A DNA stretch of 64,000 nucleotides, taken from positions 51,121-115,120 of the forward strand of contig JAAYUB010000092.1 in assembly GCA_012517875.1 (NCBI GenBank), written 5' to 3'. Both the position numbers and the translations under genes were made by a program. Origin of the DNA: Acidobacteriota bacterium (GTDB lineage Bacteria; Acidobacteriota; JAAYUB01). The notes below the pieces were generated by a model, which was given only the letters and a program-made list of their open reading frames with translations, searched no databases and had not been told where the DNA came from. This document shows positions 3,838 through 31,767 of this stretch, piece after piece. Positions within the stretch are counted from its first letter, which is position 1; each line of letters begins with the position of its first letter.

Positions 3838-6800
3838 TTACTCAGCCAGCCGGGCGGCCAGCAGGCGGCAATCCAGGGCATCGAGCGCGCCGGACCGGTT
3901 GAGATCGCCCATGTCCGGCCGGAGACAGGGCGGCTTGCCGGGCGCCAGGTTACCCACGACCAGGTGCAACAGCAGGCCCAGATCCCGGGCATCGGATCGA
4001 CCATCGCCGTCCAGATCGCCGTCGGGCTCCAGGACACAGCGGATTTCGCGGCCGCTCACCTGGACATCGTCCACGTACCAGCCGCCCGATCCCACCACCA
4101 GGTCACAGCCCAGGCGGAAGCGGATCTGGACCCTTTGGCCGCCGTATGCGGCGAGATCCACTTGGGTCTGGATGAACCCCTGGCTGTCGCCGGACCAGGC
4201 GGCGCGCCGGCCCAGCGGATTGAGCAGGAAGAAATCCAGCTCGTGCGTGTAGCCGCCGGCGCTCATCGCCGAACCGAGGTCGGCCCACGGCTCCGTGGCG
4301 GTCCGGATCTCCAGGACGCCGCCGTCGGACTCTGTCTCCAGGTCGTAATCGTGCCAGAAGGTCAATGCCGCACCTTCAGGCACTTCAAACCAGGGGCTCA
4401 GCAACGAGTTATCCTTGATGTTGTCTTCCGCGGGGGTGAACCAGCTGGTTGCCGGAGAATGGCTCCACCCGCCGACCTGCGACCAGTCGGTCACTCCCTG
4501 GTCGAGCAGGTGGCTCCACCCGCCCGCACCCGCCTCCACGTCGTCCGCAAACGTGATCCGGTCCACCTCTTCGCCCGCGAGCAGCGCCATCGGCTGCTCC
4601 CACTGCAGCGCGTCGCCCGCTTCGTTCCGGCATTCGATGGTCAACAGCCAGTCCAGTTGCGCGCCACAGGCCAGCGCATCATCCAGGATGACGTAGAACT
4701 CACCGGTCGCGACGGCACCGACCGCCAACGTGGAGTAACCACTGGCCGCGGGGTCAATCTGGACCTCCGGCATGCCGGTGGCCAGGCTGGCGGTGACATC
4801 CACGGCGGGATTCGTGCCGATGTTCTGCAGAGTCAGCTGCATGGTCACCGACTCGCCCGGTTCCGGGATCCCGTCGCCGTCGCCACCCCAAAATTGCCAG
4901 TCGGTCGGGACCACCACCGGTCCCACCACCGGCATGAAGCAGAGGCTGAGCCCGGGTTCCACCACCGGTTCGCGGCAGGCGAACTGAAGCCCTTTCGTTC
5001 CGTTGTAATCCTCGATCCCCACCGTGGCGTCGGCGCCGAAGTCATAGGCCGGGTCGCCGAACGCGGTGTCCTGGTAATTCAGGTGGATCTTGTGGGTCGA
5101 CTCCTCCAGCGCGACCTGGAACGTGACCGCCCCGACTTTGTTGTAATGCGCCACATTCAGCCAGGACACCACGAACAGCCGGTGGGGCGGCTGCCCGTCA
5201 ACCCGGTAGCGGATGGCCGCCCCCGGCTTGGTCAGGTCCAGGTCGGTCCAGAACGCCGCGATGACCGCGTTGGGATTCTCCGGCCGGGGGATCTGCGTGT
5301 TGCCGGCGTCCCAATCGTAGACGCCGGTGAAGCGGAGCAGTCCGTTCGTGGAGATCAGCACCTGTTCATACGTCTTGCCGTAGAACTTGAACGGGAACCC
5401 GATCGGTACGACCGCGCCCGCATCATCCTGGCCGGCCAGGACGGCCGCTCCACCCGCCGGCTCGATCCAGGCCGGGTCCTGCGTCTGCATCAGGTAGTCC
5501 ATCCGCTCCACCACCTCGCCCGAGACCACCTCCTGGTCGGCGGCCAGACCGGGCGCGCTGGCGAAAAACGTGATCTGGGCGCTGCTCGGGCCCGCCGGCA
5601 CCCACCGTCCGGTGAACAGCCCGTCATTTGCACGGACATCGGCGTCCGCACCGTCGTCGCTCAGGGTGAGGGTGCGCGTGCCCGCCGCATCCACCACCCG
5701 GGCGGTGACGTGCGGCTGGTCCACCGGTTCGGCGCAATCGGTGCCCACCACGGCGCCCAAGGTCACGTCATCACCGTCCATGACGACGAATCCACCTGCA
5801 GGCTGGTCGGGGACAAGCCGGACGGCTGTCGGAGTGCAGGTCCAGTGCAGGGCGGTCTCGGGACAGCCGAAGAGGGTGGTTTCAAAATAGACCCAACGGT
5901 AACTGCCGTCGCCGGCCAGGGCGGCCAGACGCTGACGGGATTCGTTCAGGGCAAGACCCAGATTGCGGCGGAACTGCTCGAACACGGATCGCATGTACTC
6001 GTGGTCAAACACGTTGGACGTGCCGTTGGTGCCGCCGGACGCGTACCAGCCGTAGCGCGTGTTCATCACCGCGGCGAACGCGGCGGCGGTGGTACCCACG
6101 GTCATCCGCTCGGCGAAACAGACGTCGTAGACGAAGTTCCCCGGGTAGCAACCCTGGCTGTACACAAAGAACGGACAGGTGTTGGTGAGCCGGCTGACAT
6201 CGGAGTTGTACAGCTTCAAGCAATAGGTGCTGTTGGCGTGCCCCAGGTGGTTGACGATGTGTGTGTCGTCGGTGTTGAAATAGGTGTCGATTAGCGTATC
6301 GGTCGACCACTCCGCACCCGGCGCGTCATACAGGCGCTCGGCGGGAATTCCGGCCATCGCCCCGTAAACGACATCCTTGCTGTCGCCGCCATAGGTCTGG
6401 TCGTCCAGCTTTTCGCCCAGCAGCAGCGTGCGGAAGGGTGGCGCAGAGTTCTCGTAAGCGATGATTTTCTGAATCTGGGTGGTCGCTTCCGTGGGGCTCG
6501 AGGCGGCGATGCGGCCCACTGCCACCTCCGCGAACAGGTCGGTCTCGTCGGCGGGCTCGCCGAACAGACTGTTGCCGTTCGCGTTCCAGTCGCCGTCGAG
6601 GGCGGCGAAATAGAGATCGGTGGGGATGGCGGTATCCACGGTGTCGCCGACCTTGCCATAGGTGCCCCGCCACGGGATGATCTCGCTGTCGCCGCCGAGC
6701 ACCACCCAGCGGGTGCCGTGGCTTTGGTATCCGGAAGTGATGAACGTGCGGAGCTTGTGCGCGCTGTCGGTGCCCGGCGTGGCGGCGAGGATGTCCTCGA

Positions 6801-7560
6801 TCCGGACGAGATGGACATTCAGACCCCGGCTTGTCTTGTGGTCGGCCAGCTCCTGAAAACTGGTTTCCAGCGCCGCGTTCGTCACGATCAGGTACTCCCA
6901 TGCCGTGTCCAGCGATTTCTTCTCCGGCGGAGCGTAACCGTCCAAAGTCGCAGGATTGTCCACGAGCGCGGCCACATCCGCCCGGTCATCCGCCAGTGGG
7001 CGCCGCATGGGCGCGGCCTTGGCCCGCGGCTCCGGCGCCAGCGTGAGCACAAGCCGCATCCGGGGGATAAACTGCAGCTCACCGGCGGCCGGGTAGTACA
7101 CCACCGGATGCAGCGTGAAGAGGGCGACCGGATACCCCTTCAGCCACTGCACGCCGGCCGCTGAGGCGCGGGCGGCGGGAAACGGTCCGGGTGTGTCGTA
7201 AATCCTCGGGTCGGGCGCCACCGCTTCGATGCCGGCCCCCGCTGTGGGGAACAGGCCGGGGCAATGGGAAACCCGGACCGGTCGACCCAACAATACCGGT
7301 GCCTCGGCCTTGAGGTCGAACCCCGCCAGGCGGAATCCGGCAGGGAGGAGTACCCGACCGGTGAACACCGGCAGCATGGGCTGGCCGGGCTCCAGCGAGT
7401 CCGGGCAACCGGCGATCCGGACGTCCACCCGGCCGTCCGGGTGCCGCTCCAGCCGCGGCCGCTCGAAGCGGTATTCCAGCACGAGTTCCTCCGCGGCCAT
7501 CCAGGCCGCGAAGAGATACAGCAGGACCAGCACACCAGCCATCCGTCTCATGAGCACCAT
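3838..7560 (-). CDS. secreted gingipain-like C25 cysteine peptidase with accessory domains and C-terminal dockerin
   Basis: Signal peptide, C25 propeptide, EYLIVT...WVVLGGD, TDLYFAALDGDW, VAVGRI, catalytic His (NHLGHAN) and Cys (YSQGCYPG); then choice-of-anchor-X-like (LSDDGADADVRANDGLFTG), nidogen-like (IGFPFKFYG...ISTNG...AFWTDL), adhesin-like beta module and dockerin; start ATG 7560 or nearby. Confidence 0.9.
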   Translation of the reverse strand: MVLMRRMAGVLVLLYLFAAWMAAEELVLEYRFERPRLERHPDGRVDVRIAGCPDSLEPGQPMLPVFTGRVLLPAGFRLAGFDLKAEAPVLLGRPVRVSHCPGLFPTAGAGIEAVAPDPRIYDTPGPFPAARASAAGVQWLKGYPVALFTLHPVVYYPAAGELQFIPRMRLVLTLAPEPRAKAAPMRRPLADDRADVAALVDNPATLDGYAPPEKKSLDTAWEYLIVTNAALETSFQELADHKTSRGLNVHLVRIEDILAATPGTDSAHKLRTFITSGYQSHGTRWVVLGGDSEIIPWRGTYGKVGDTVDTAIPTDLYFAALDGDWNANGNSLFGEPADETDLFAEVAVGRIAASSPTEATTQIQKIIAYENSAPPFRTLLLGEKLDDQTYGGDSKDVVYGAMAGIPAERLYDAPGAEWSTDTLIDTYFNTDDTHIVNHLGHANSTYCLKLYNSDVSRLTNTCPFFVYSQGCYPGNFVYDVCFAERMTVGTTAAAFAAVMNTRYGWYASGGTNGTSNVFDHEYMRSVFEQFRRNLGLALNESRQRLAALAGDGSYRWVYFETTLFGCPETALHWTCTPTAVRLVPDQPAGGFVVMDGDDVTLGAVVGTDCAEPVDQPHVTARVVDAAGTRTLTLSDDGADADVRANDGLFTGRWVPAGPSSAQITFFASAPGLAADQEVVSGEVVERMDYLMQTQDPAWIEPAGGAAVLAGQDDAGAVVPIGFPFKFYGKTYEQVLISTNGLLRFTGVYDWDAGNTQIPRPENPNAVIAAFWTDLDLTKPGAAIRYRVDGQPPHRLFVVSWLNVAHYNKVGAVTFQVALEESTHKIHLNYQDTAFGDPAYDFGADATVGIEDYNGTKGLQFACREPVVEPGLSLCFMPVVGPVVVPTDWQFWGGDGDGIPEPGESVTMQLTLQNIGTNPAVDVTASLATGMPEVQIDPAASGYSTLAVGAVATGEFYVILDDALACGAQLDWLLTIECRNEAGDALQWEQPMALLAGEEVDRITFADDVEAGAGGWSHLLDQGVTDWSQVGGWSHSPATSWFTPAEDNIKDNSLLSPWFEVPEGAALTFWHDYDLETESDGGVLEIRTATEPWADLGSAMSAGGYTHELDFFLLNPLGRRAAWSGDSQGFIQTQVDLAAYGGQRVQIRFRLGCDLVVGSGGWYVDDVQVSGREIRCVLEPDGDLDGDGRSDARDLGLLLHLVVGNLAPGKPPCLRPDMGDLNRSGALDALDCRLLAARLAE
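3841..4023 (-). other. type I dockerin-like domain (C-terminus of C25 peptidase)
   Basis: Duplicated Ca-binding loop-helix: GDLDGDGRSDARDLGLLLHLVVG ... GDLNRSGALDALDCRLLAARL. Confidence 0.85.
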
Positions 7561-19447: not shown

Positions 19448-20206
19448 TCAGAAGCTGCAGCTCAGCGTCACCCCTCCCCACAGGGCATCCGCCTCGCCGT
19501 CCCAGTTGATGCCACGCAGCGCCTCCTTGCTCTGCGTGGTCAGCGGGAACGAATACGCGATCTGGCCGTCCAGGCTGAACCGCTCGCCCAGGGGGACCGA
19601 CAGGGCAGTGTAAAGCTCCAAATTGTAGAACTGGGTGAATGGCTCGCCATCCGATCCGGACCCCATGACCTTGTGCCGGATGTTGAAGCCCATGTTGGCG
19701 CCCGTCGCCAGCTCTACGTCCCGGGGCAGGGTCCAGACACGTTCCAGGGTGCCCTGCACAAAGGCGCCGTCCCCTTCGTCGAAATCGTAGTAGACCGCCA
19801 CCTTGGGCGACACCCACCCCTCGTGGCCGACGCTGACAAACACCTCCTGGGTGGACGGATAATTCGCGATCCAATACATGATGTACCCGGCTTCCAGCTG
19901 GAGGCCCCGCCACTCCCACGCACGTCCGACATTGAAATCGATCTCGTTGGAGTCGCCGCTCCCGGGTTCCAGATTGGACCAGATGCCGGCATACCACCCG
20001 GACACATCGACCGTCACCTCCGGCTGCAGTACGACGCCCTCGCTCAGCAGCTGACCCCGCCAGAAGTAGCGGGAACAGAAGCCCACCGCGGCCTCACCCG
20101 TGACCTCGGCGGCGCACACGGCGCCGGTCGCGCCGGCGGCGACGATCAGCGCGACGACAGCCCACCGGGACCATGAACCCATCACGTTTGCCGGGTGTCC
20201 GTCCAT
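19448..20206 (-). CDS. TorF/TIGR02001-like outer-membrane beta-barrel protein
   Basis: Only the 3' part of ORF 19448..22105 is plausible; GAGGT SD before ATG 20206, signal peptide, SRYFWRG, GIWSN, EIDF motifs, terminal Phe. Confidence 0.75.
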   Translation of the reverse strand: MDGHPANVMGSWSRWAVVALIVAAGATGAVCAAEVTGEAAVGFCSRYFWRGQLLSEGVVLQPEVTVDVSGWYAGIWSNLEPGSGDSNEIDFNVGRAWEWRGLQLEAGYIMYWIANYPSTQEVFVSVGHEGWVSPKVAVYYDFDEGDGAFVQGTLERVWTLPRDVELATGANMGFNIRHKVMGSGSDGEPFTQFYNLELYTALSVPLGERFSLDGQIAYSFPLTTQSKEALRGINWDGEADALWGGVTLSCSF

Positions 20207-20401
20207 ATGCACCTCGCTGTGCGGAATGCGCGCAGCATAACACCACCGGTCCATGCTGGCAAGGGTCAACCCAGCCGGCTGCCGATGCCGATTGCGGCAA
20301 CTCCACCGGGGGATCGACCGGCCCTTGCCTTCGACGGTGCCAGTTTCTACAATACGGTGACGGTCTGTCACCGATTCTGCAATCAGCACGGAGGCTGCAT
20401 C

Positions 20402-22138
20402 ATGCGACGCATCACCTGGTCGGCCTGTTACCTGTCGCGCCGCGGGACGCTGGTCACCGGTCTCTGGCTGGGACTGGCTCTGGCGCCCGCCGCCGCCGGC
20501 AGGGACGCCCTGCCTCCGCCCACGTCGGTGCTCGCTGAGCTGACCGCCGCCGCCCGTTCGACCAAGCCGGCGGATGTGAAGCACCGTCTGAACCGCGCGG
20601 ATTCCCTCCTGGACCATGGCGCCGCGGTCGACGAGCGGGACGACCTGGGCCGCAACATCCTGCACTGGGCGGTGATCACCGCAAGCACCGCCACCCGCCG
20701 GGCCGAGCAGGAGCGCGGCATCGAGGTCCTGGAACATCTGCTGCGCCATGGCGCGGACCCCAACTGCCGGGACGTGTTCGGAAACGTGCCGCTGGATTAC
20801 GAGGGATTCGCGCCGTACGAGACCATCCAGGACCTGCTGCTGGAAAACGGGGCGGAAGGCCGTGAAGTCAACACGGTCGCCCACCGACTGGCGGAACAGG
20901 TGGCGCAACTTGAGACCGCCAGCACCGCCGGCGACATGGACCGGCTGCGCGCCTTGCTGGAGGCCGGTATCCCCATCGGGACCAGCCTGGACATCCGGCT
21001 GACCTCCGCCGTCGGCAGCGCCCGGTCCCGCGCCGGCGAGCTCGTCGAGGGCGTCATCTGCGCGCCGGTGACGGTGAACGGCCGGGCCGTGTTCGGCGCC
21101 GGGACCCGCATCCGCGGAACCGTGCTGCGCACCCAAAAATGCCGCAATGCCTATGACCGGGCCAACCTCATGCTGGACCTGTGCGACGTGATCCTGCCGA
21201 ACGGTTCCCACCTGTGCCTGACAACCCGGCTGCAGTCGGTGGACAACGCGCGCGAGACGGTCCGCGACGGGCTGATCATCGGCATCGCCTACCCGCACAA
21301 CACCGCCAGCCGGATCTCCATGGGGTTCCACATGCTCGGCAAGCTGTACCCGGCGGTGGGTTACGCATTCGACAGCGCCATGTACGCCTTCGGCCTGACC
21401 TACCACCGCGAGATCGACTACCCGGCCGGCACCGAGCTCACCGTCCAGGTGCAGCTCCCCTGCCGGTTCGCACCGCCCGCCGGCGTAACGCCGTGGCCGG
21501 AACTGACCCTCGACGAGGCGACTGCCGCACACCTTCGCAGCGGCCCTGGCCGCACCGAGTCCGCCGACGGCCGGCCCGGCGACTGTGTCAACATCGTGCT
21601 GCTCGGAACCGCCGCGCAACTGCGGCAGGGATTTGAAGCCGCGGGTTGGACCCCGGCGGAGAAGACGGGCATGGTCTACGGCGCCAAAACGTTCCTGGCC
21701 GTCCTGCAGCAGAAGGGCTACGCGACGGCGCCGGTGTCCACTTTCCTGATGGGGGATCGGCCGCCGGACCTGGTGTTCCAGAAGCAACTCAACACCTTCG
21801 CCAAGCGACATCATGTCCGGATCTGGCGGCTGTCTGAGCCCGTCGGCGGCGAGACCGCCTGGCTGGCCGCCGCCACACACGATGTGGGCATCGGCGCGGA
21901 GAAAGCCGGACTGTCCTGGTACCACCGGATCGATTCCCATATCGACCGGGAACGGGACAAGATCGCCGCCGACCTCATGTTCACGGGGCTGCCCCGGGGC
22001 GTCTGCTGGCTGGACCGGCCGGACTTCCCGCGCACCGCCAAGAACGCCACCGGGGACGATCTGGTCACCGACGGCCGGATGCTGGTGCTCGCCTTCCCGG
22101 CGCACGCGGCGACCGCCGGTACCGGGTCAGCCGATTAG
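20402..22138 (+). CDS. secreted ankyrin + VirB10/TrbI-like + LssY C-terminal domain protein
   Basis: Signal peptide; ankyrin-like DDLGRNILHWAV...LLRHGADPNCRDVFGNVPL; IRLTSAVGS...GTRIRGTV beta domain; LssY_C-like GDCVNIVLLG, RHHVRIW, ATHDVG, HRIDSHIDRERD. Confidence 0.75.
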   Translation: MRRITWSACYLSRRGTLVTGLWLGLALAPAAAGRDALPPPTSVLAELTAAARSTKPADVKHRLNRADSLLDHGAAVDERDDLGRNILHWAVITASTATRRAEQERGIEVLEHLLRHGADPNCRDVFGNVPLDYEGFAPYETIQDLLLENGAEGREVNTVAHRLAEQVAQLETASTAGDMDRLRALLEAGIPIGTSLDIRLTSAVGSARSRAGELVEGVICAPVTVNGRAVFGAGTRIRGTVLRTQKCRNAYDRANLMLDLCDVILPNGSHLCLTTRLQSVDNARETVRDGLIIGIAYPHNTASRISMGFHMLGKLYPAVGYAFDSAMYAFGLTYHREIDYPAGTELTVQVQLPCRFAPPAGVTPWPELTLDEATAAHLRSGPGRTESADGRPGDCVNIVLLGTAAQLRQGFEAAGWTPAEKTGMVYGAKTFLAVLQQKGYATAPVSTFLMGDRPPDLVFQKQLNTFAKRHHVRIWRLSEPVGGETAWLAAATHDVGIGAEKAGLSWYHRIDSHIDRERDKIAADLMFTGLPRGVCWLDRPDFPRTAKNATGDDLVTDGRMLVLAFPAHAATAGTGSAD

Positions 22139-23643
22139 TACCGCCGTTGGAAAAACGCCGGCGGCTGCGCCGCGGGATCATAGCCGGGCACCCAGCGCGC
22201 CACCTGATCCGCCCCCTGGCTGAGGCGCTGCACACACCGGGCGCTGAACTCGTCCAGCAGCCGGCGGGCTTTGTCTGCCCGCCCTCGCCGCACCAGCTCG
22301 GCGGCGCGGCGGCGGACCTCCCGCCACTCCTTCAACTCCTTCCGCTCCAGCCCGGCCCAGTGGGCGCGGATCCGCCGGATCACCTCGTCCGACTCGCCCC
22401 AGCGGGCTTCCAGGTTCCGCGACACCGCCGCCAGCCGCCACCACAGCGACTCCTTTTCATAGGCGCTCCCCGCGCGGGTCAGTTCCGCCGGGAGCCGGAG
22501 GTCCAGCGCCGGGAAGAACGGAACATACGCGTTGAGACATGGCACGTGCAGGCACGCCCACAGGGTGCCGCCCAGGCTGTCGGCCACGCCGGGCTCGGAA
22601 ACGGCGATCATCGAGCCCACGGTACCGCCGTAGCAGATGGTGCGCACCGGAACCCCCTCCAGCAGGGAGCCGGGCAGAGAACAGTGCGGATCGACGCCTG
22701 GCGTGTGCGGCCGGATGGAGCGACCGTCGTCGGTCCGGAAGGTCCAGGCCTCGAAATGGTCCCGGAGCACGGCGGCAATCCCCTCCACCGTGATCCGGCC
22801 TTCGATCCGCCGCATCCGCTCCATGCCCCGGCGATAGCGCATCTCGTTGTAGTGGGTGTTGTCCGGGCCGTGATAATCCTTGCTGTATGACAACCGGAAA
22901 CTGAATCGCCCGTTCTCCTCGCGGTACTGTCCCTGGGCTCGGGCATGTTCCATGAGCTCGCGGCGGCGCAAATGGAACCGGTCTGAATCGTCGGGCAGGT
23001 CGGGGTCGGTGATTTCGAACCGGTTGGCCCGCACACAGACACCGTCGGTCACCCGGACGGCCGCCCAGCGGTTGCCGGTGGTCTCGATGATCCAGATCTC
23101 AGTGGGGTCGGCGACGGTGTAGATCTCGGGCACCCGGCTGTGATGGCTGGCGATGAGCGCATCCACCAGGTCCACCGCTTCCCGGGCGGTGCGGCAGCGC
23201 TCCAGGATCAGGCGGGTGATGTCGTTGTCGTGGAGGGCCGGCCCGTCGAAGGTGTCCCAGGTGTTGCCGTCGTTGTTGGCCACGCTCACCTGGTGCCGGT
23301 TCATGCCCATCCCCACGCCCCAGCGCCACAGCCGGTCGTTCCGACTCCGTTCATCCATGGATTTGAAGCCGAGCAGCTGCCAGGTCTGGCGGGCGGCGTC
23401 GATGGTGATGAACTGCGTCGCCAGCGTGGCACCAGCGGGGTGTTCACCGTCCGGCTGAAAGTGGAGGATCTGGCCGGAGTCGACGGGGTAATCACGGTTT
23501 TTGCCCAGGATGGTCACGCCGTCGCGGGTGGCGCGCCCGGTGGCGCCCACCATGGTGCAGTCGGCGGCCTGGACCTGGGCCGCCAGCAGGGCCGCCGCCA
23601 GGAGGAGCCAGCCGACAATGGTCCATACGGTGCTACGCTTCAT
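22135..23643 (-). CDS. secreted C69/secernin-like Ntn-hydrolase peptidase
   Basis: Signal peptide followed by N-terminal nucleophile Cys (ADCTMV), ILGKNRD, GMNRHQVSVAN, IWIIET. Confidence 0.82.
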   Translation of the reverse strand: MKRSTVWTIVGWLLLAAALLAAQVQAADCTMVGATGRATRDGVTILGKNRDYPVDSGQILHFQPDGEHPAGATLATQFITIDAARQTWQLLGFKSMDERSRNDRLWRWGVGMGMNRHQVSVANNDGNTWDTFDGPALHDNDITRLILERCRTAREAVDLVDALIASHHSRVPEIYTVADPTEIWIIETTGNRWAAVRVTDGVCVRANRFEITDPDLPDDSDRFHLRRRELMEHARAQGQYREENGRFSFRLSYSKDYHGPDNTHYNEMRYRRGMERMRRIEGRITVEGIAAVLRDHFEAWTFRTDDGRSIRPHTPGVDPHCSLPGSLLEGVPVRTICYGGTVGSMIAVSEPGVADSLGGTLWACLHVPCLNAYVPFFPALDLRLPAELTRAGSAYEKESLWWRLAAVSRNLEARWGESDEVIRRIRAHWAGLERKELKEWREVRRRAAELVRRGRADKARRLLDEFSARCVQRLSQGADQVARWVPGYDPAAQPPAFFQRRY

Positions 23644-23733: not shown

Positions 23734-25854
23734 TCAGTAACCGTAGGCCGCCACCACCGCCTCGGGGCCGATGTCATTGCCGTTCTGATCGATGTGGGCA
23801 AAGTTGTAGTTGTTCCCGTTCGTGAGCTTGATGTGAAACGCCCGGTACATGCCGATGGGCAGCCGGTTGGTTTTGAATTCCTTGATGGCCGAGCGCGGCA
23901 CTTCGAAGTCGTCCGTGCGGCCGTCGATGGAGCGGATGGTCCGGTAGACCACCCGGTCAGGATAGATGGATAAATGGCCGATGCAGAACAGCGTGAAGTC
24001 GCCGCTGTGGTCGTGCCCCACGAGGAACGTCTGCGCCTGGCTTTCGACGGCGGCTTGCTGCTCCGCGTGCTCCAGGTTGCTCATCAGTTGGCGGTAGTCG
24101 CTGTTGGCGGGGAAAAACTGCATCAGCAGCCGGCACAGGCGCTTCGCGGACGCCAGGTCGCCCGAGTTGATCTGCGACTGCATCTGGCTGTGGACCATGG
24201 AGACCGCGTCCTGCTGCAACTGCAGGGCGTACGCGTGGCCGGGATCGCGCCGGAGAATCTCCCCGGTGAGCTGCAGCACGTTGTTCCCGGGTGGTTCGAT
24301 GAACCGTCCCGCGGAATACGCCTGGTAGGCCTGGGTGGACAAGGCCTGCAGCGGATCGTCCACGGGTGTTTCTCCACCCGAGCCGGGCTGGTCGCCTTTG
24401 TTCGCCCATTTGCCGGAGTCGGGCGGCTCCTCCGCCGGCGGTGGCGGCGGGACCGGTGTCGGTTGCGGCTTGGCGTCTTTCCGCCCCTTGTCCGACTGCG
24501 CCGCGCCGCCGGGAAGCACGGGCAGCGTGAGCGTGCCGGTCGGCTGGCTCGATGGCGGACTGGCGGCCGGCAGGGACGCGGGGGTTGTCACGGGCGGAGT
24601 CTGGGTGCCGCCGGAGCTGCCGCCGGCCACCGTGGTGGAGGCGGTCGGCGTCTTGGGTGACGGTTTGAGTAACACCGCCAGCACCACGACCGCCAGAGCC
24701 ACGATGATCAATCCGGCAGCGGCAACACCTCCGATTATCAGCACCTTCTTCTTGCTGGTATCGGGCCGGGCGGCGGGGAAACCGGTGCCCAGCCGCGAGT
24801 CAAACACGGTGGCGCCGGGAATCTGAACACCCTGGGTGCCCGGCGGATACGCCTGGGTGCCACCCGGATATGCCTGCGTCCCGGCAGGGTACGCCTGGGT
24901 GCCCGGCGGGTAAGCCTGTGTTCCGGCGGCGTACGCCTGGGTGCCCGGCGGCGGCGGGGGCGTGCCCGCCGGTCGGGCCGGGGCGGCGCCCGTGGCGGCA
25001 TAGGCGGCGGTGGCGCGGGGCGGCGGCGCCGTGCGGAGGGCCTCCTGCAGCGCCGCGCCGAGCGCCTGCGAAAATTCTTCGACGGTCTGATATCGGGTGC
25101 GCGGATCCTTCTCCAGGGCGTGCAGGACCGTCCGGTCGAACACCTTGGGCAGCTGCGGTAGGACCTTGGAGGGCGAGGGCGGCGGTGTGCGCACGTGGGC
25201 CTGCATGATCTCGAAATCGGTGCTTCCCCGGAACGGCACCGTGCCGGTGAGCAGCTCGAAGAGCGTGATGCCCAGCGCGTAGATGTCGCACCGAAAATCA
25301 GTCTCCTTGCCCTGGATCTGCTCGGGCGACATGTAGTACAGGGTGCCCACCTGCAGGCCGGTCTGGGTCAGGCGCGACTGGCCCATCACCCGGGCGATGC
25401 CGAAGTCCATGACCTTGACGATGCCTTGCCGGTTCACGATCATGTTCGACGGTTTGATGTCCCGGTGCAGGATGCCCATCCGGTGGGCCTGGCTCAGGCC
25501 GAACAGGGCCTGCTGGAACAGCGGCACGGCCTCGTGAAAAGGGACGGCGCCGCGCTGCCGGATCATCTGCTCCAGGTTCATCCCCTCGACGTACTCCATC
25601 ACCATGAACAACTGGTCCTGGTGGCGGAAAAAATTGTAGAGGGTGCACACGTTGGGGTGGTTGAGCTGGGCCTGGGTTTTGGCTTCGGCAAGAAACCGCT
25701 GGATCAGGCTGGCTTCCTGCGACAGCTCTTTTGACAACACCTTGATGGCGACAATGCGGTCCAGGTTGATGTCCACCGCCTTGTACACCGTGCCCATGCC
25801 GCCCTGGCCAATTTTTTCCAGAATTTTATAGTGGTCGATGACTTGACCGATCAT
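23734..25854 (-). CDS. transmembrane Ser/Thr protein kinase with heptapeptide-repeat linker
   Basis: IGQGGMGTVY, VAIK, HRDIKPSN, DFG, GTLYYMSPE; one TM helix; extracytoplasmic Pro-rich, TPR-like and PH-like regions. Confidence 0.95.
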   Translation of the reverse strand: MIGQVIDHYKILEKIGQGGMGTVYKAVDINLDRIVAIKVLSKELSQEASLIQRFLAEAKTQAQLNHPNVCTLYNFFRHQDQLFMVMEYVEGMNLEQMIRQRGAVPFHEAVPLFQQALFGLSQAHRMGILHRDIKPSNMIVNRQGIVKVMDFGIARVMGQSRLTQTGLQVGTLYYMSPEQIQGKETDFRCDIYALGITLFELLTGTVPFRGSTDFEIMQAHVRTPPPSPSKVLPQLPKVFDRTVLHALEKDPRTRYQTVEEFSQALGAALQEALRTAPPPRATAAYAATGAAPARPAGTPPPPPGTQAYAAGTQAYPPGTQAYPAGTQAYPGGTQAYPPGTQGVQIPGATVFDSRLGTGFPAARPDTSKKKVLIIGGVAAAGLIIVALAVVVLAVLLKPSPKTPTASTTVAGGSSGGTQTPPVTTPASLPAASPPSSQPTGTLTLPVLPGGAAQSDKGRKDAKPQPTPVPPPPPAEEPPDSGKWANKGDQPGSGGETPVDDPLQALSTQAYQAYSAGRFIEPPGNNVLQLTGEILRRDPGHAYALQLQQDAVSMVHSQMQSQINSGDLASAKRLCRLLMQFFPANSDYRQLMSNLEHAEQQAAVESQAQTFLVGHDHSGDFTLFCIGHLSIYPDRVVYRTIRSIDGRTDDFEVPRSAIKEFKTNRLPIGMYRAFHIKLTNGNNYNFAHIDQNGNDIGPEAVVAAYGY
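24832..24945 (-). repeat. in-frame 21-bp tandem repeat encoding (GTQAYxx) x5 plus GTQ
   Basis: GTQAYAA GTQAYPP GTQAYPA GTQAYPG GTQAYPP GTQ; synonymous variation between units. Confidence 0.95.
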
Positions 25855-25867
25855 GAGATGCCCCCGA

Positions 25868-26458
25868 TCACAATCTCCGGAATTTCAGATATACGCCGCC
25901 GATCCGGATCAGATCCTCGTCCGCCAGCAGATGGCGAGGGGACGGTTGGGTACCGCTGTTGACAAACACGGGCCCCTCCAGCCCTTCCAGGTACAGGCCG
26001 TCCCGCTCCTTCACCACCCGCGCATGGCACGGAGCCACCCCTGCCTCCTCAAGCCGCAGGCCGGCGCCATGGCCCGAGCCGACCACCAGCTGCTCGCGGT
26101 CGAGGCGGACATCCACAAACTTGGCGGCTCCGCTCATGACCACCAGCCATCCCAGCAGGGGCAGACCGCCGGACGGGCGCGCCGGGGGAGGCGTGAGCGG
26201 CAGCGTGGGCATTGCGTCAGCGGACGCGATGTCCGCCACCGTCGCACCCGGAGGCGTTCGGTAGTGTGCGGTATAACCGTCCACCACCGTCGCCCGCAAC
26301 GGTGAAGCGGGAGCCAGTTCGGTGGGTGAGGCGACCGGCACCGGAGGGGGAGTGGAACTGCCCAGTGGCTTCTGCACCCCGTCCTCGCTTCGGGCGCAGT
26401 AGGGGCACTCGGTCATCCACTCCTCCATCGGGTGTCCGTGCGCACAGAACTTCAGCAT
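25868..26458 (-). CDS. Zn-ribbon + degenerate FHA domain protein
   Basis: N-terminal CAHGH...CPYC; Pro/Thr linker; LLGWLVV followed by an FHA-like fold lacking the GR, SxxH serine and NGT motifs. Confidence 0.8.
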   Translation of the reverse strand: MLKFCAHGHPMEEWMTECPYCARSEDGVQKPLGSSTPPPVPVASPTELAPASPLRATVVDGYTAHYRTPPGATVADIASADAMPTLPLTPPPARPSGGLPLLGWLVVMSGAAKFVDVRLDREQLVVGSGHGAGLRLEEAGVAPCHARVVKERDGLYLEGLEGPVFVNSGTQPSPRHLLADEDLIRIGGVYLKFRRL

Positions 26459-26491
26459 CGTTCCACTCCGGCTCCGCCCCCGAACCGCGGA

Positions 26492-28141
26492 TCACTCCAC
26501 CCGGAAGATCGCCGCCTGTTTGCTTCCCAGAATGATCCGGTCGCCGCTTTTGACGAAATTCTGCTGAACCCGCGGCGAGTTGATGTCGTTGATGAAAGTC
26601 CCGTTCGTCGATCCCCGGTCCTCCAGCAGGAGACCTTTGGGGCTCGGAGTGAGCAGCGCATGCACCTTGGACACGTGGTCGTCCGGAATGACCACCGTGC
26701 ATTGGGATGGGTCGCGGCCGAAGATCAAGCCCTTGGACGGTATCTCCGTTACTTTGCCGGCACCAGGGCCCTTCTCGCAAACCAGCCGGCCGAAGCTGCC
26801 CACCTGCTGGCGTTGCGATTGGACATCCACAACCGTGGCCCGCATCTCCGGGGTGCCGGCCGCCGGCCGCGGGGGCGACGGGGCGGCTTTCTTCCCGCGC
26901 GACGCCAGGATCACCACCACGCCCACGATCACCAGTAACAGCAGCCCGCCCCCCACGATCGCCAGTATCGTGCCGTATCGACTGAAGAAGGTGGGCGGAT
27001 GGGCGGTGAGCCATTCCTGGCATTTGACCTGGATCCGTTTGGCGTCCGGCTGGTTGGGCATCAGGCGCAGGATCTCATCGCACTTGACGATCGCTTCCTC
27101 ATAATCCTCGTCGAAGTAGAGATCCAGCGCCTGCTGCCACAGGCTATCGATCAATCCGCGTTTTGACTGGATGCCGGCGGCACTGATGAATTCCTTGGCT
27201 GTGTTGATGGGAACGGCGAAATTGAAGCCTTGGATCGGGATGGCGCTTTGGGCGCCCGTGGGGGCCAGGCTGATGAACGTAGCGATACCGATCACCTCGC
27301 CTGTATCGTTGAAGACCGGGCCGCCCGAATTGCCCCAGGTGACCGGCGCGTCAAACTGGATGACCGGCGTGCCCTTCACGTCCAGCTTCAGGCTGGACAC
27401 GTGGCCCGAGGTGATGGAGGCTTCGAGCATCGAGGACTGGCTCAGGTAATCGTGCTGGCTCACCACGCCGGGGTAGCCGGCGGGGAACACCGCTGCCTGG
27501 AGCGAAACTGCAGCGGAGTCGCCCAGCGGCACCGTGGGCAGATTGCCCTGTTCGATCTTGAGCACCGCGATATCCTTGCCCGACTCCTCCTCCTCGTAGC
27601 TGAAGATTCCCTCGGTCTTGCCGGCGACAGGTGTGATCGGCGGGCTGTACTGCTTGATCTCGGCGGGGAAGTACTGCCAGTTCGACAGGAACACAAACAG
27701 TTGCTTGGACACCTGAAACACCGCCGCGGCCGCAAGCTGCTGGAAGACCGATACCTTCTCTTCCTGGGTCAGGGGCGCACCCTTCCGCTGCTCCAGCGCG
27801 GGAAAGATGTGCTGCGCGAGGATCTGCACCAGTGCTTGCGACTTGAGCGAGTTGTTCTCCTTGCTGTGGTACTCTTTCACCACATGGCCGTTGGTCACGA
27901 TGTAGCCGTCCGGATTGACAATGAATCCGGAGCCGGATCCGCTCATGTCCATGGGGTCGAACTCCTGCAGGCCTTCATTCGTCCGGATCGCCACCTTGAC
28001 CTGAATCCGCGAGTAGACCATGACCACGGCCGGTTTGACGGTCAGTATGTTCTTCTCGCGCGCCCGCTCTTCGGCGGCAATCAGCGGCGCCCCGAGAGCC
28101 AGCACCAACAGAAGGGCGAGAACGCACCCGCGCTGAGACAT
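26492..28141 (-). CDS. membrane-anchored trypsin-like serine protease with cytoplasmic FHA domain
   Basis: Signal peptide; triad TNGHVV / KDIAVLKI / GNSGGP; TPR-like helices; TM helix; intact FHA (FGRD, VSKVH, GSTNGTFIN). Confidence 0.92.
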   Translation of the reverse strand: MSQRGCVLALLLVLALGAPLIAAEERAREKNILTVKPAVVMVYSRIQVKVAIRTNEGLQEFDPMDMSGSGSGFIVNPDGYIVTNGHVVKEYHSKENNSLKSQALVQILAQHIFPALEQRKGAPLTQEEKVSVFQQLAAAAVFQVSKQLFVFLSNWQYFPAEIKQYSPPITPVAGKTEGIFSYEEEESGKDIAVLKIEQGNLPTVPLGDSAAVSLQAAVFPAGYPGVVSQHDYLSQSSMLEASITSGHVSSLKLDVKGTPVIQFDAPVTWGNSGGPVFNDTGEVIGIATFISLAPTGAQSAIPIQGFNFAVPINTAKEFISAAGIQSKRGLIDSLWQQALDLYFDEDYEEAIVKCDEILRLMPNQPDAKRIQVKCQEWLTAHPPTFFSRYGTILAIVGGGLLLLVIVGVVVILASRGKKAAPSPPRPAAGTPEMRATVVDVQSQRQQVGSFGRLVCEKGPGAGKVTEIPSKGLIFGRDPSQCTVVIPDDHVSKVHALLTPSPKGLLLEDRGSTNGTFINDINSPRVQQNFVKSGDRIILGSKQAAIFRVE

Positions 28142-28257
28142 ATGGCCTCCTTAAACGGTCCGGAATGCATGCCTGCCGGCGTTTTGATCTCATTGTAGCA
28201 CAGGCGCAAAGGCCCGCAATCGATTTTGCTTGGGCGCGGATTCCGGGCATGGTATAG

Positions 28258-29094
28258 ATGCCGCATGCCCCCAAGCGGAAACGTTCGGCCATGACGCGCT
28301 GCCGACTCACCCTGACGAACGACCTGCACCTGGATCAGATCCACCGGTGGAACCACCCCTGGTCTGATTTCCTTGCTCGTCTGGCCCGGGAGGGCGTCCA
28401 GCGGCTGGTCCTGGCCGGCGACATGATCTCGTTCGCCGAGCACAACCTGGACAAGGCGTTCCGGGCGCTCGCTCCTTTCACCGGGCAGATCCTGTACACA
28501 CCCGGCAACCACGACCTGTGGACACGTTCCGGCGATTCCCTGCAGCTCTACGAGGAATACATACCGGCAGTCTGCGCCCGCTACGGCGTGCACTACCTGG
28601 ACGCCGCCCCGTACATCGAGGGCGCGGTGGCCGTTGTCGGCAACGTGGGCTGGTACGATTATTCGTTCCGGGATGAATCGCTGGGCTACCCCGAAGACTG
28701 GTATCGGCAACGCTGGATACCCGGACGGTTTCAATGGATGGACCGGCATTACATCCGCTGGCCGCTGACAGACCCGGAATTCGTCGACTGCTGCTGCCGG
28801 CGCCTGGATGGCCAACTGGCCGGACTGCCCGACTCTGTGGACACGGTGGTCGTTGTCACCCACCACATCCCGTTTCACGAAATGCTGGTCCGCAAACCCG
28901 ATCCGGTCTGGCGGTTCGGCAACGCCTTCATGGGCAGCCCCCGGCTTGGTGCAGTCATCCGCCGGCATCCGCAGGTGGCCCACGTCTTCTGCGGCCATTC
29001 GCACGTCGGGGTGCGCGTCACCATGGCGGAACGCACTGTCGTCTGCCTGGGCGGCAACTCCAATGAGAAAGTGCTGGAAACCATCGAGCTATGA
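28258..29094 (+). CDS. calcineurin-like metallophosphoesterase
   Basis: DLH, AGD, GNHD, HH and GHSH metal-binding motifs; start may be ATG 28291. Confidence 0.9.
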   Translation: MPHAPKRKRSAMTRCRLTLTNDLHLDQIHRWNHPWSDFLARLAREGVQRLVLAGDMISFAEHNLDKAFRALAPFTGQILYTPGNHDLWTRSGDSLQLYEEYIPAVCARYGVHYLDAAPYIEGAVAVVGNVGWYDYSFRDESLGYPEDWYRQRWIPGRFQWMDRHYIRWPLTDPEFVDCCCRRLDGQLAGLPDSVDTVVVVTHHIPFHEMLVRKPDPVWRFGNAFMGSPRLGAVIRRHPQVAHVFCGHSHVGVRVTMAERTVVCLGGNSNEKVLETIEL

Positions 29095-29106: not shown

Positions 29107-31767
29107 TCAGCAATCCGGCGCCGACAGCCCCCCGCCGGCCGGATCATCCGCCGGGGCGGCTTCGGCGCCATCCGCGCCGGCGGTGGCGGGCGGCGCCACC
29201 ATCTGTTCCAGACGCCGGATCCGGTCCGCCATCTGCTGTCGCTCCTCCCGCCAAGCCGCCTCCCGCACGGACCACCGGCGGCGCGCCGTGACGATCGCCA
29301 CACCGGCGACGGCGAGCAGCACCAGGCCCGTGGTCCATAGGAACGGTGCGGTCCGCCAAAAGGGCGCTCGGATTTCCACGCTGACTGTCAGCGGCCTGGG
29401 GCTCCAGATTCCGGCATGATTGCGGGCCAGGACCTTCAGGGTGTATGTGCCGGGCGGAGGAAACGTCAGCCGGATACCGTGTTCTCGGGTGGGCTCGGTC
29501 CAATCCGGGTAGAGACCGTCCAGCAGGTAGCGGTACCGGATCCCCTGCTCATCCCGGTAGCTCAATCCCACCCAATCAACTGTGACGGTGCGGACCGAAT
29601 CCGGCAGCTCGCACCGTCCGTTCACCACTGGAACCGGCTGCCCGTCCGCTTTCAGCTCCGTCAGATGGATCATGGGCGGAGACAGGTTGGGAATGTCGCC
29701 CTCGGGATTGTGTCGGCAGGCGCCGCGGTTGGTGCCGAACCACAGCCGCCCGTCGGCATCCAGCGTCCACGCTCCCCGCAGGACGATCTGCCCGAAAAAG
29801 CCGGCGAACACACCATATGATTCCACCGCCTGCCCGTTGAAACGCCCCAGCCCCCGATTGGTCAGCAACCAGATCCCACCCTGGCGATCCTGCAGGATCT
29901 CGTACACGGCTTCGCCCGCCAGCCCGTCCTGCGGCGAATAGCGACGGAGCTCCTCCCCGCTGAAGCAGTTCAGCCCCAGGTCGGTGCCGATCCAGACGTT
30001 CTTTTCCGTGTCCTCGTACCAGCTCAACACCGCCTTGCCCAGCAACCCATTGGCTTCGGTGTAATTGACGATCCGGCCATGCCAGAAGACGCTGAGCCCT
30101 TCGTCGGTGGCGATCCAGATCCGGCCCATGGAGTCTTCGCGAAAGAACCGAATCGAGTCGCTGACCAGGCCCGTCGCCCGGGTGATGTTGCGGAAGTAAT
30201 CGTAGCGGTACACCATCAGTCCGGCCCGGGAGCCGAACCATAACTGGTTGCGGGAATCTTGAAAGATCTGCCGCACCTGGTTATGGAGCAGCCCGTCGGC
30301 TTCGGTGTACACCCGGACGGCGCCGTTCCGATCGATGGCCGCCAGACCCTTTCGGGTGCCGCACCAGATGGTGCCGCGGCGGTCCTGCAAGAGCGCCTGG
30401 ACCTCGGTGTCCGGCAGACCCTCCTCCGCGTCGTACACGCGGCGGATGGCGAGTCCCTCGATCATGATCAGTCCGCCCGCCATGGCCACCCAGATCCGGC
30501 CATCCCGATCCTCCATCATGCTGGTCATGGGGCCGGCCGGCAGTCGGCGGTCGCGGCCCAGTCGGGTGATCCGTCGGCCGTCAACACAGAGCACTTCCTG
30601 ATCCGCACCCAGCCACGCCCGTCCGCGCGAATCCACAAGGGCGAGCTGCAGCCGGTTGGTCGGCAGACCGGGTCCTGGATCCAACCGGGCGAAACTTCGC
30701 CCGTCCCAATGACTGAGACCACCATCAAGGGATGTCAGCCAGAGCCCACCTCGTCCGTCCGGTCGAATCTCGTTGATGGATCCTTCGCAGAGACCGTCCC
30801 GGCGGTCGTAAAGCACAAACTGTTCGCCCATGAACCGCGACAGTCCCCCCTCGCGGGTGGCGATCCAAAGGTTGTGCTCCCGATCCAGGCAGAGACTGGT
30901 GACGAATGGGCATCCGAGCCCTTCACGGGTGCCGAACGGAGTGAACGCCCGTCCGTCGTACCGGATGACGCCTCCGCCCCAGGTACCGATCCAGAGGCAG
31001 TCCCGACGGTCGTCCCGGACAATCTTGTTCACCTCGGGACACGGCAGGCCGTCGGCGCCGGTGTAGACACGGATTTTGTCGCCGTCGATCCGGAGCAGAC
31101 CGGCGGAGGTGCCCGCCCAGACAACGCCGCGAGCGTCCTCCATGAAGCCGTACACCGTCTGCCGCGGCGTGGCGGTTTCCTGGGCCAAGGTGCGGAACGC
31201 CTCGCCCTCCCGGACGCTGATCCCTCGCATGGTGCCCACCCACAGCCGCCCCATCCGGTCAAAAAACAGGCTGCGGACCGCGTTGTCCACCAGGCCGTCG
31301 GCCACCGTCCAGAGCGTGAACTTCCCCTCCTTCAGGCGCGCGACACCTTCGTCCGTTCCCACCCACGGGCAGCCGTCGCTGTCGATGACGATGGCGCGAA
31401 TCGTCCGGCTCCGCAAGCCGTCGGGATCGACAGCTTGAAACCGGCCATCCCGGCGGATGGTCAGGCCCAGCCCGGTACCGATCCAGAGATTCCCCCGGCC
31501 GTCCTCCGCCAGGCTGATGACCGTGCCGAAGGAAAGGCCGTCGGCAGTGGTGAACGTGGTGAATTCGCGGCCGTCATACCGCACGAGGCCGCCGGAGGTC
31601 CCCAGCCAGATGAACCCCCGGCTGTCCTGGATCACCGACCAGACCCGGGGGCTGGGCAGACCTTCGAGCGACGAATACTGCCGGAACGGCCACATCTCGG
31701 CCCTGATCGACAGGCAGGTGGAAATCATCAGGAGCAGGCAAAAGACGCGCCGCACGACAACCCCCAT
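29107..31767 (-). CDS. Reg_prop beta-propeller / Y_Y_Y ligand-binding sensor protein with no cytoplasmic catalytic domain
   Basis: About 14 repeats of (D..G.(L/I)W(I/F)GT..GL) plus DGL spacers, YRYLL..GL...W Y_Y_Y domain, TM helix, then about 55-aa tail. Confidence 0.88.
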   Translation of the reverse strand: MGVVVRRVFCLLLMISTCLSIRAEMWPFRQYSSLEGLPSPRVWSVIQDSRGFIWLGTSGGLVRYDGREFTTFTTADGLSFGTVISLAEDGRGNLWIGTGLGLTIRRDGRFQAVDPDGLRSRTIRAIVIDSDGCPWVGTDEGVARLKEGKFTLWTVADGLVDNAVRSLFFDRMGRLWVGTMRGISVREGEAFRTLAQETATPRQTVYGFMEDARGVVWAGTSAGLLRIDGDKIRVYTGADGLPCPEVNKIVRDDRRDCLWIGTWGGGVIRYDGRAFTPFGTREGLGCPFVTSLCLDREHNLWIATREGGLSRFMGEQFVLYDRRDGLCEGSINEIRPDGRGGLWLTSLDGGLSHWDGRSFARLDPGPGLPTNRLQLALVDSRGRAWLGADQEVLCVDGRRITRLGRDRRLPAGPMTSMMEDRDGRIWVAMAGGLIMIEGLAIRRVYDAEEGLPDTEVQALLQDRRGTIWCGTRKGLAAIDRNGAVRVYTEADGLLHNQVRQIFQDSRNQLWFGSRAGLMVYRYDYFRNITRATGLVSDSIRFFREDSMGRIWIATDEGLSVFWHGRIVNYTEANGLLGKAVLSWYEDTEKNVWIGTDLGLNCFSGEELRRYSPQDGLAGEAVYEILQDRQGGIWLLTNRGLGRFNGQAVESYGVFAGFFGQIVLRGAWTLDADGRLWFGTNRGACRHNPEGDIPNLSPPMIHLTELKADGQPVPVVNGRCELPDSVRTVTVDWVGLSYRDEQGIRYRYLLDGLYPDWTEPTREHGIRLTFPPPGTYTLKVLARNHAGIWSPRPLTVSVEIRAPFWRTAPFLWTTGLVLLAVAGVAIVTARRRWSVREAAWREERQQMADRIRRLEQMVAPPATAGADGAEAAPADDPAGGGLSAPDC

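Follow-up and report, generated by a model that had tools for sequence, protein, structure and literature searches.

A membrane-anchored HtrA-like protease with a cytoplasmic FHA domain is encoded in a conserved Hanks-kinase module of Acidobacteriota and other phyla

The DNA analysed here is a stretch of 64,000 nucleotides from an Acidobacteriota bacterium of anaerobic digester and sludge metagenomes (assembly GCA_012517875.1, contig JAAYUB010000092.1, positions 51,121 to 115,120 of the forward strand). The whole 64-kb stretch is referred to as the window, and positions are counted from its first letter. Three adjacent genes, all on the minus strand, encode a membrane-anchored serine protease with a cytoplasmic forkhead-associated (FHA) domain, a small soluble protein made of a Zn-ribbon and an FHA-like domain, called here ZnFHA, and a Hanks-type Ser/Thr kinase. 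The genes are spaced as in an operon, as only 33 bp separate protease and ZnFHA, and 13 bp ZnFHA and kinase. A gene encoding a calcineurin-like metallophosphoesterase (MPE) is found head-to-head with the protease gene, on the plus strand. The divergent intergenic region between the two, 116 bp long (28142-28257), presumably hosts promoters. No useful match was obtained by scanning this region for sigma-70 promoters and terminators; the consensus may not suit this organism. An initial annotation, made from the sequence alone, had already delineated the four open reading frames (ORFs) and the head-to-head gap, and all the coordinates are confirmed. The domains and topologies proposed there agree with Pfam, NCBIfam, hydropathy and AlphaFold2 (AF2) models wherever tested. 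The closest locus, 98% identical, is found in the metagenome-assembled genome (MAG) JAKQOW010000032. All four genes are under purifying selection, with ratios of nonsynonymous to synonymous substitution (dN/dS) of 0.04-0.24, and of 0.04-0.13 in the three cassette genes.

The protease (26492-28141, 549 aa) is matched in Pfam by Trypsin_2 (6.7e-25) and FHA (PF00498, 1.3e-13), the latter at 51.6 bits against a gathering score of 20.7. According to hydropathy and the positive-inside rule, an N-terminal hydrophobic signal or anchor (residues 2-26; 28064-28141) is followed by a periplasmic catalytic domain, a transmembrane (TM) helix (residues about 385-420, then RGKK; 26900-26989) and a cytoplasmic FHA domain. 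The AF2 model, obtained from a 26-sequence alignment, has a mean predicted local distance difference test (pLDDT) score of 82. It features a trypsin fold (27179-27952) with a helical insertion at residues 97-137, helical hairpins (residues 330-380; 27002-27154), the TM helix, a disordered linker (residues 415-447; 26801-26899) and a confidently modelled FHA domain (residues 452-548; 26498-26788). The catalytic triad H86/D190/S272 is conserved in 67-68 of the 68 family members. The residues expected to bind phosphothreonine (pThr) are all in place in the FHA domain (G475-R476, S491-x-x-H494, N513-G-T515), R476 being conserved in 61 and the others in 65-68 of the 68 members. Conserved residues and topology thus agree with the extracytoplasmic trypsin with intact triad, TM helix and intact cytoplasmic FHA of the initial annotation.

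The catalytic domain is HtrA-like. Foldseek matches the protease domains of HtrA1, DegS and DegQ (TM-scores 0.75-0.82), MucD, DegP and HtrA profiles are matched in the PDB at 2e-33, and Deg1 is another relative retrieved by these searches. No PDZ domain was identified by Pfam or NCBIfam, and in the AF2 model hairpins, TM helix and FHA domain are what follows the protease domain. All the NCBIfam HtrA models score well under their cutoff (96 vs 416 bits). The segment encompassing TM helix, linker and FHA weakly matches the FhaB/FipA model NF049868, and is not an FhaB orthologue, because the score of 57.6 bits is below the FhaB cutoff of 125. In databases the protein goes by no other names than 'trypsin-like peptidase domain-containing protein' and 'serine protease Do'.

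ZnFHA (25868-26458, 196 aa) is a soluble protein in which an N-terminal Zn-ribbon with a CxxH...CxxC pattern (26384-26458) is joined by a linker (26165-26383) to an FHA-like domain (25871-26164). The latter scores 19.6 bits in Pfam, under the gathering score of 20.7, and also matches Yop-YscD_cpl at 1e-5. The pThr pocket is lost, since GR is changed to GS, SxxH to APCH, and NG is deleted, and the degenerate FHA of the initial annotation is therefore an apt description. The Arg of the GR loop is missing throughout the ZnFHA family (R in 1/51), most members of which retain SxxH and DLDS(T/S)NGT. Loss of the SxxH serine and of the NG loop is confined to the window clade, and relatives 62-66% identical have SxxH and DLDSTNGT, without the Arg. 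The window protein thus lost its pThr-binding loops recently. The dN/dS of ZnFHA is 0.12-0.13, as compared to 0.04-0.11 for protease and kinase, which points to a functional pseudo-FHA protein rather than to a decaying gene.

The kinase (23734-25854, 706 aa; Pkinase, 1.1e-58 by Pfam) has a cytoplasmic catalytic domain (25045-25830) with intact GxGxxG, VAIK Lys, HRD, DFG and SPE motifs at residues 16, 35, 130, 150 and 176. A Thr-rich juxtamembrane linker (24751-25044) leads to the TM helix (residues about 368-402, preceded by KKK; 24652-24750), beyond which about 300 residues are located outside. These include a Pro-rich spacer, a helical repeat (24043-24354) and a PH-like domain (23737-24033). 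The kinase scores below the cutoff of the PASTA-kinase model, and no PASTA domain was found by NCBIfam. In the AF2 model of the ectodomain (pLDDT 77, with only three sequences in the alignment) the helical repeat precedes a beta-sandwich, which resembles in Foldseek the PH domains of Bcr-Abl, Sin1, SSRP1 and GRK2. The TPR/PH-like extracytoplasmic domain, the TM helix and the cytoplasmic kinase domain anticipated in the initial annotation find here their counterparts. No Pfam model fits either ecto-module. A word-indexed search for relatives of the ectodomain retrieved 2 fragments, and an exhaustive HMMER search was used instead. The PH-like module is found elsewhere fused directly to trypsin proteases (P0163). 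Kinase ectodomains vary by lineage from 72 to 350 aa, and protease ectodomains are conserved.

The juxtamembrane region of the kinase hosts a 21-nt tandem repeat (24831-24951, minus strand, 5.8 copies) encoding GTQAYPx heptads, which may provide additional pThr sites. Its GTQAY core is present in 5 copies, and the repeat shortly precedes the ATVFD motif described below. Related kinases carry different Pro/Gln/Thr-rich repeats, as PPQYQT in loci L024 and L071. Contigs from sequencing runs X3 and X4 feature a joint from 23925 to 24805, which skips 879 nt in frame and would delete TM helix, spacer and helical ecto-module of the kinase. A real variant was considered and set aside, as the joint is backed on one side by 20 nt only and probably arose as an artefact of assembly. 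Three runs carry the label RNA-Seq (X3, X4 and X7); with flat depth and contigs of about 100 kb, they behave as the DNA run X1 does.

The neighbourhood of the protease gene was surveyed at 80 species-representative loci hosting relatives, and ORFs were clustered without prior assumptions over 79 of these. Four families recur, all co-oriented: the protease (74 loci), the Hanks kinase (57), ZnFHA (47) and a fourth gene (41), whereas the next most frequent family is found in 10 loci at most. The fourth gene encodes a protein of about 255 aa, is located between ZnFHA and kinase in most Acidobacteriota, and is a PP2C phosphatase by Pfam in 15/15 sampled cases. In high-GC DNA, shadow ORFs make the greedy ORF census miss some PP2C genes, and partners were therefore counted by tblastn at the 44 loci that encode an FHA-bearing protease and extend for 5 kb or more in both directions. 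A Hanks kinase was found within 5 kb in 42 of these, on the same strand in 41; a second FHA protein and PP2C were each found in 38, and kinase, second FHA protein and PP2C occur together in 34. Protease paralogs lacking the TM-FHA tail, mostly from NC10/Methylomirabilota, are flanked by neither kinase nor ZnFHA nor PP2C (0/11 loci). The order of the genes varies. It is protease, ZnFHA, PP2C, kinase in most Acidobacteriota; protease, kinase, a small gene, ZnFHA, PP2C in Geobacter and Aquificota; kinase, PP2C, FHA, protease in Eisenbacteria and Gemmatimonadota. The order is thus shuffled and the content kept in at least five phyla. Because shuffled order goes with constant content and co-occurring partners, the three co-oriented genes are part of a conserved functional module. 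It is highly probable that the genes of the cassette are functionally linked. Whether they are co-conserved, a question raised by the initial annotation, is settled in the affirmative by this survey.

A few loci depart from the rule (L054, L069, L079). One is a Blastocatellia locus where the FHA-bearing protease has no partner within 5 kb; in two Aminicenantes loci the kinase is on the opposite strand, or only PP2C and a kinase fragment are present. Three module-bearing contigs (L016, L058, L077) were assigned to MAGs of Heimdallarchaeota, Dormiibacterota and Clostridia. Order and spacing of the genes in L058 are very similar to those of the acidobacterial group, and a binning error is thus suggested, rather than a true occurrence in these lineages. 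No type VI secretion system (T6SS) or rodA/pbpA client genes were found near the module, nor did the neighbourhood census reveal any other recurrent family. Accessory genes occur in some lineages. A conserved gene of about 165-200 aa without Pfam match (cluster 9, 8 loci, for instance L008:12846-13409, L010:12821-13315 and L011:12827-13432) separates the kinase gene from that of ZnFHA in module forms from Geobacter, Aquificota and Deltaproteobacteria, and Geobacter loci host downstream an RlpA-like DPBB_1+SPOR gene. In an Aquificota metagenome contig (L088:5771-6565) a bacterial gasdermin gene (PF26164, Bact_GSDM) is located directly downstream of PP2C and co-oriented; the equivalent downstream genes of Hydrogenobacter sp. 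RSW1 (L010) have no Pfam match. In Eisenbacteria and Gemmatimonadales the protease-FHA gene is directly followed by a gene for a Phenol_MetA_deg (PF13557) outer-membrane beta-barrel protein (L086:8582-9520, L087:8833-9816), which could be a substrate or partner of the protease. Two protease-FHA paralogs are arranged in tandem in Eisenbacteria. Neither the accessory genes of Geobacter and Aquificota nor a 236-aa gene adjoining MPE in L084 have Pfam matches.

PP2C is absent from the window, all 64 kb of which were searched by tblastn. It is similarly missing in relatives 92-98% and 62-66% identical, in a clade 48-50% identical and in three Acidobacteriaceae loci, while a 44% identical relative has the full four-gene set. 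The window copy is therefore a reduced, three-gene and PP2C-less derivative of the four-gene module. A triad of kinase, FHA and PP2C is present in 38 of the 44 family loci and not in the window. A coupling between PP2C loss and ZnFHA degeneration was considered and rejected, because L036, L038, L053 and the 62-66% relatives lack PP2C, yet retain the SxxH and NGT loops.

The three proteins of the cassette share a short motif. ATVVD is found in the disordered cytoplasmic linker of the protease, between TM helix and FHA (T436, in MRATVVDVQ; 26825-26839), and in the ZnFHA linker, between Zn-ribbon and FHA (T57, in LRATVVDGY; 26279-26293). ATVFD is found in the juxtamembrane linker of the kinase (T349, in PGATVFDSR; 24799-24813). 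All three are encoded by the minus strand, and ATV[VF]D occurs exactly 3 times in the six-frame translation of the window, once per cassette linker. In the AF2 model of the protease the motif lies in a low-pLDDT stretch flanked by the TM helix and the confident FHA domain. At the family level, the motif T-[VIMLRF]-[VILMF]-[DE] is far more frequent in equivalent linkers than in composition-matched shuffles (kinase, 16/54 vs a shuffle mean of 0.6; protease, 23/66 vs 0.5; ZnFHA, 39/51 vs 1.2), an enrichment of overstated significance, as the motif was defined post hoc and the loci are related. Its variants covary by lineage. KATVVD is found in both protease and ZnFHA in the window group; in the 48-50% clade the protease has KKTIVD and the kinase KTIVE; TR[IL]E is the form of many other Acidobacteriota. 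Classic FHA ligands consist of a Thr with an acidic or hydrophobic residue at +3. ATV[V/F]D is likely a phospho-acceptor and FHA-docking site, a candidate role suggested by its composition and location. A comparable arrangement has been described in the mycobacterial pair Rv1747/PknF, in which a membrane transporter is controlled through pThr in the unstructured segment that joins its FHA domains (PMC3138270, PMC8339232).

Taken together, these features outline a possible pathway. A signal perceived by the kinase ectodomain, a sensor variable among lineages and formed here by the helical repeat and the PH-like domain, would activate the kinase. The kinase would in turn phosphorylate the Thr of the T-hydrophobic-hydrophobic-[D/E] motifs found in its own linker and in those of protease and ZnFHA. 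The FHA domain of the protease would bind the phosphorylated motifs, so that the protease would be tethered to the active kinase, or joined tail to tail with other protease molecules, or both. Clustering or oligomerisation would finally alter activity or location of the periplasmic HtrA-like domain. The ZnFHA of the window is probably a phosphorylatable decoy or a bridge and no reader of pThr, and PP2C would act as eraser where present. That kinase, protease and ZnFHA are wired by pThr-FHA contacts, with phosphorylation proceeding in the proposed direction and the FHA domain binding the motif, is fairly probable on the basis of the conserved domains and motifs. Coupling of this kind had been put forward in the initial annotation, and fits both the strict conservation of the protease FHA and the Thr motif common to the three linkers; the eraser role suggested there for MPE finds no support, as discussed below. 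HtrA proteases act as oligomers, and clustering-driven activation would for this reason be the most economical idea to account for a periplasmic effect.

Taken to its full extent, the scheme is an inside-out control, operating in at least five phyla, in which kinase-written pThr and FHA cross-linking would assemble an active protease oligomer, with a pseudo-FHA as decoy or bridge. It is advanced as a tentative possibility. Several observations weigh against the pathway in general. A contact established in the cytoplasm would have to act, through one TM helix only, on an active site located in the periplasm. The linker motif, besides having been chosen after inspection of related loci, is missing from the module versions of Geobacter, Aquificota, Eisenbacteria and Gemmatimonadota. 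Finally, a PP2C-less copy with a degenerate ZnFHA, as that of the window, may work differently or be partly decayed.

The main rival to inside-out control reverses the direction of the signal, or makes of the protease a feedback device. The protease would cleave the kinase sensor, a periplasmic ligand or a partner, in a manner resembling DegS site-1 cleavage, and proteolysis would terminate or propagate signalling, the FHA domain merely docking the protease at the active kinase. Co-conservation of the genes and integrity of the FHA domain fit this scheme equally well. By fold, the protease has its nearest relatives in regulatory HtrA proteases (DegS, AlgW, MucD) and in DegP/DegQ, the juxtamembrane region of the kinase has a docking-type motif next to GTQAYP repeats, and fusions to trypsin proteases of the PH-like ecto-module are themselves on record. 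However, a conserved cleavage substrate within the kinase is unlikely, because kinase ectodomains vary so widely in length while the protease ectodomain is conserved, and cleavage of this sort has no need of a linker motif on protease and ZnFHA. Control from the outside is accordingly regarded as rather unlikely. An anti-phage or abortive infection system, with the kinase as sensor and the protease as effector, is much less credible. It is true that PADLOC yields the models PD-T4-6 and mad6 for the kinase domain and protease models of retron and Lamassu type for the trypsin domain, and that at one Aquificota locus the module is followed by a gasdermin gene. The PADLOC matches concern generic domains, though, and no match was obtained at the system level; the protease domain is periplasmic, not cytoplasmic; synteny is stable and chromosomal, purifying selection strong, and neighbours typical of mobile elements or defence islands are missing. 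The gasdermin was seen at that single locus, its Hydrogenobacter sp. RSW1 equivalents being unmatched. Kinases and FHA proteins are generally abundant in Acidobacteriota, and the window itself hosts a second kinase (1343-3379), so that the three genes might be regarded as unrelated neighbours. Chance adjacency is effectively refuted by the presence of a kinase at 42/44 loci with FHA-bearing and 0/11 loci with FHA-less proteases, and by a gene content conserved across phyla in spite of the shuffled order.

A last alternative, that starts from the eraser proposed in the initial annotation, concerns the head-to-head MPE gene (28258-29094, plus strand), which might replace the missing PP2C and dephosphorylate the pThr sites of the cassette. 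The encoded protein is 278 aa long (267 aa if started at M12, as its relatives are), matches Metallophos at 2.7e-9, and is cytoplasmic, as neither TM helix nor signal peptide was found. Its location and the purifying selection acting on it (dN/dS 0.22-0.24) suit the eraser role. So does its distribution, since MPE adjoins the cassette in two clades, that of the window and that of 48-50% identity (L006/L084/L091), neither of which has PP2C, and which share no other flanking synteny. MPE is, however, adjacent at only 2 of the 44 module loci, and relatives devoid of PP2C, such as the 62-66% group, L036, L038 and L053, have no MPE beside the cassette. That the MPE homolog P0277 might adjoin the cassette of the 66% relative was considered and rejected, as it is flanked by an AAT-like gene on one side and URO-D on the other, and no cassette occurs up to 10 kb away. 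In another lineage (L093:8780-10867) an AAT/C45-like gene is located directly upstream of an MPE homolog. The motifs are generic (DLHLD, GDMISF and GNHD, fitting DxH, GD and GNHD), and the PPP-phosphatase signature GDxHG / GDxVDRG / GNHE is not found. The best model, the 'putative phosphoesterase' TIGR03729, is matched below cutoff (115 vs 148 bits), and the sole PDB match is 6unc, an unnamed Metallophos protein (3e-6). Among 51 loci with enough downstream sequence, retrieved from metagenome contigs by using MPE as seed, a kinase is nearby in one, and FHA or PP2C genes in none. In 11 of the 51 (L104, L109, L112, L117, L122, L124, L127, L129, L130, L136, L144) MPE is immediately followed by a co-oriented HtrA-type Trypsin-PDZ protease gene, and at a separate Phycisphaerae genome locus (L095:6001-8242) the two genes overlap by 23 bp. 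This MPE/HtrA pairing is independent of kinases, and may account for the presence of MPE beside an HtrA-like protease in two clades. The putative eraser gene of the family being PP2C (38/44 loci), a role of MPE in erasing pThr marks is improbable. MPE is a neighbour of uncertain relation, located outside the conserved module.

Other genes flank the cassette in the window. Directly beyond MPE an 886-aa Reg_prop beta-propeller/Y_Y_Y protein is encoded (29107-31767, minus strand), in which a TM helix at the C-terminus is accompanied by a short tail, and histidine-kinase and DNA-binding output domains are missing; synteny is limited to close relatives. The same holds for a C69/C45-like peptidase gene (22135-23643, minus strand) located 90 bp past the kinase on the same strand, and adjoined by a gene for an ankyrin and LssY_C protein (20195-22138, plus strand). 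The second Hanks kinase of the window (plus strand, 678 aa) has a TPR array at the N-terminus, and its gene adjoins that of a 1240-aa Peptidase_C25 (gingipain-like) protein with MAM/NIDO-like domains (3838-7560, minus strand). The two form another kinase-protease neighbourhood within the window.

The module resembles in part several known systems. In the threonine phosphorylation pathway of T6SS, formed by the kinase PpkA, the PP2C PppA, Fha1/Fha and TssL (PMC3953482), a TM Hanks kinase whose sensor is periplasmic is similarly encoded along with PP2C and an FHA protein, and reading by FHA of pThr on a membrane component switches on an envelope-spanning machine. The effector is there a secretion apparatus, and FHA is soluble. 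Here FHA is fused to the effector, a periplasmic protease; T6SS genes are not found nearby, and the window copy lacks PP2C. The pair PknF-Rv1747 of M. tuberculosis features, as the protease does, a membrane effector with cytoplasmic FHA, a linker phospho-acceptor Thr and a cognate kinase in the operon (PMC3138270, PMC8339232). In this pair and in the mycobacterial fhaA-fhaB-pstP-...-pknA-pknB operon, an ABC transporter or a division scaffold serves as effector, and no protease is involved; rodA and pbpA, in turn, are missing from the module. Sulfolobus ArnA is, like ZnFHA, a small soluble protein combining Zn-ribbon or finger and FHA, which acts along with Hanks kinases and a phosphatase (PMC6509490, PMC7472852). 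The Arn system (ArnA/ArnB, the kinases ArnC/D and PP2A) is archaeal, has a vWA partner and controls archaellum expression. ZnFHA is likened to ArnA by architecture alone, and in the window its FHA lacks the pThr-binding residues. In switches of the GarA/OdhI type, as in the tail of the protease, a flexible phospho-acceptor Thr is N-terminal to FHA, which makes binding in cis or in trans possible; GarA and OdhI are soluble metabolic regulators, whereas here the switch is attached to a membrane protease. With the HtrA family (DegS, DegP, DegQ, MucD, AlgW, HtrA1/2) the protease shares fold, H-D-S triad, extracytoplasmic location and an anchoring like that of DegS. It differs in the lack of PDZ, in a partly helical insertion of about 75 residues placed between His and Asp, and in the C-terminal TM helix and cytoplasmic FHA, regulation being presumably exerted from the cytoplasm instead of by PDZ-bound peptides. 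The signalling logic itself, judged by analogy, would be that of known FHA/Hanks-kinase/PP2C triads. The new element is the effector, a PDZ-less single-pass HtrA-like protease with an FHA reader on its cytoplasmic tail. In line with the initial annotation, no characterised system with this layout was found; neither the architecture nor the module was found described in the full-text literature, with partial journal coverage.

Triads of FHA protein, Hanks kinase and PP2C are known to regulate transporters, cell division and secretion systems. HtrA proteases have a central part in stress signalling and in quality control of the envelope, and PDZ domains are their usual means of regulation. The module unites both, as an HtrA-like protease and, on the other side of the membrane, a phospho-reader are parts of one polypeptide, in an arrangement conserved in multiple phyla. 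The linker motif offers T436, T57 and T349 as candidate phosphosites. Natural variants, with or without PP2C, with intact or degenerate ZnFHA, or represented by FHA-less paralogs without kinase, are built-in controls. If the proposed scheme is true, the module would directly exemplify how Ser/Thr phosphorylation in the cytoplasm can control an enzyme of the periplasm, would reveal an HtrA regulatory logic in which cytoplasmic phospho-signalling takes the place of PDZ-peptide sensing, and would assign a concrete output to part of the many Hanks kinases that are orphans in Acidobacteriota, Geobacter and Aquificota.

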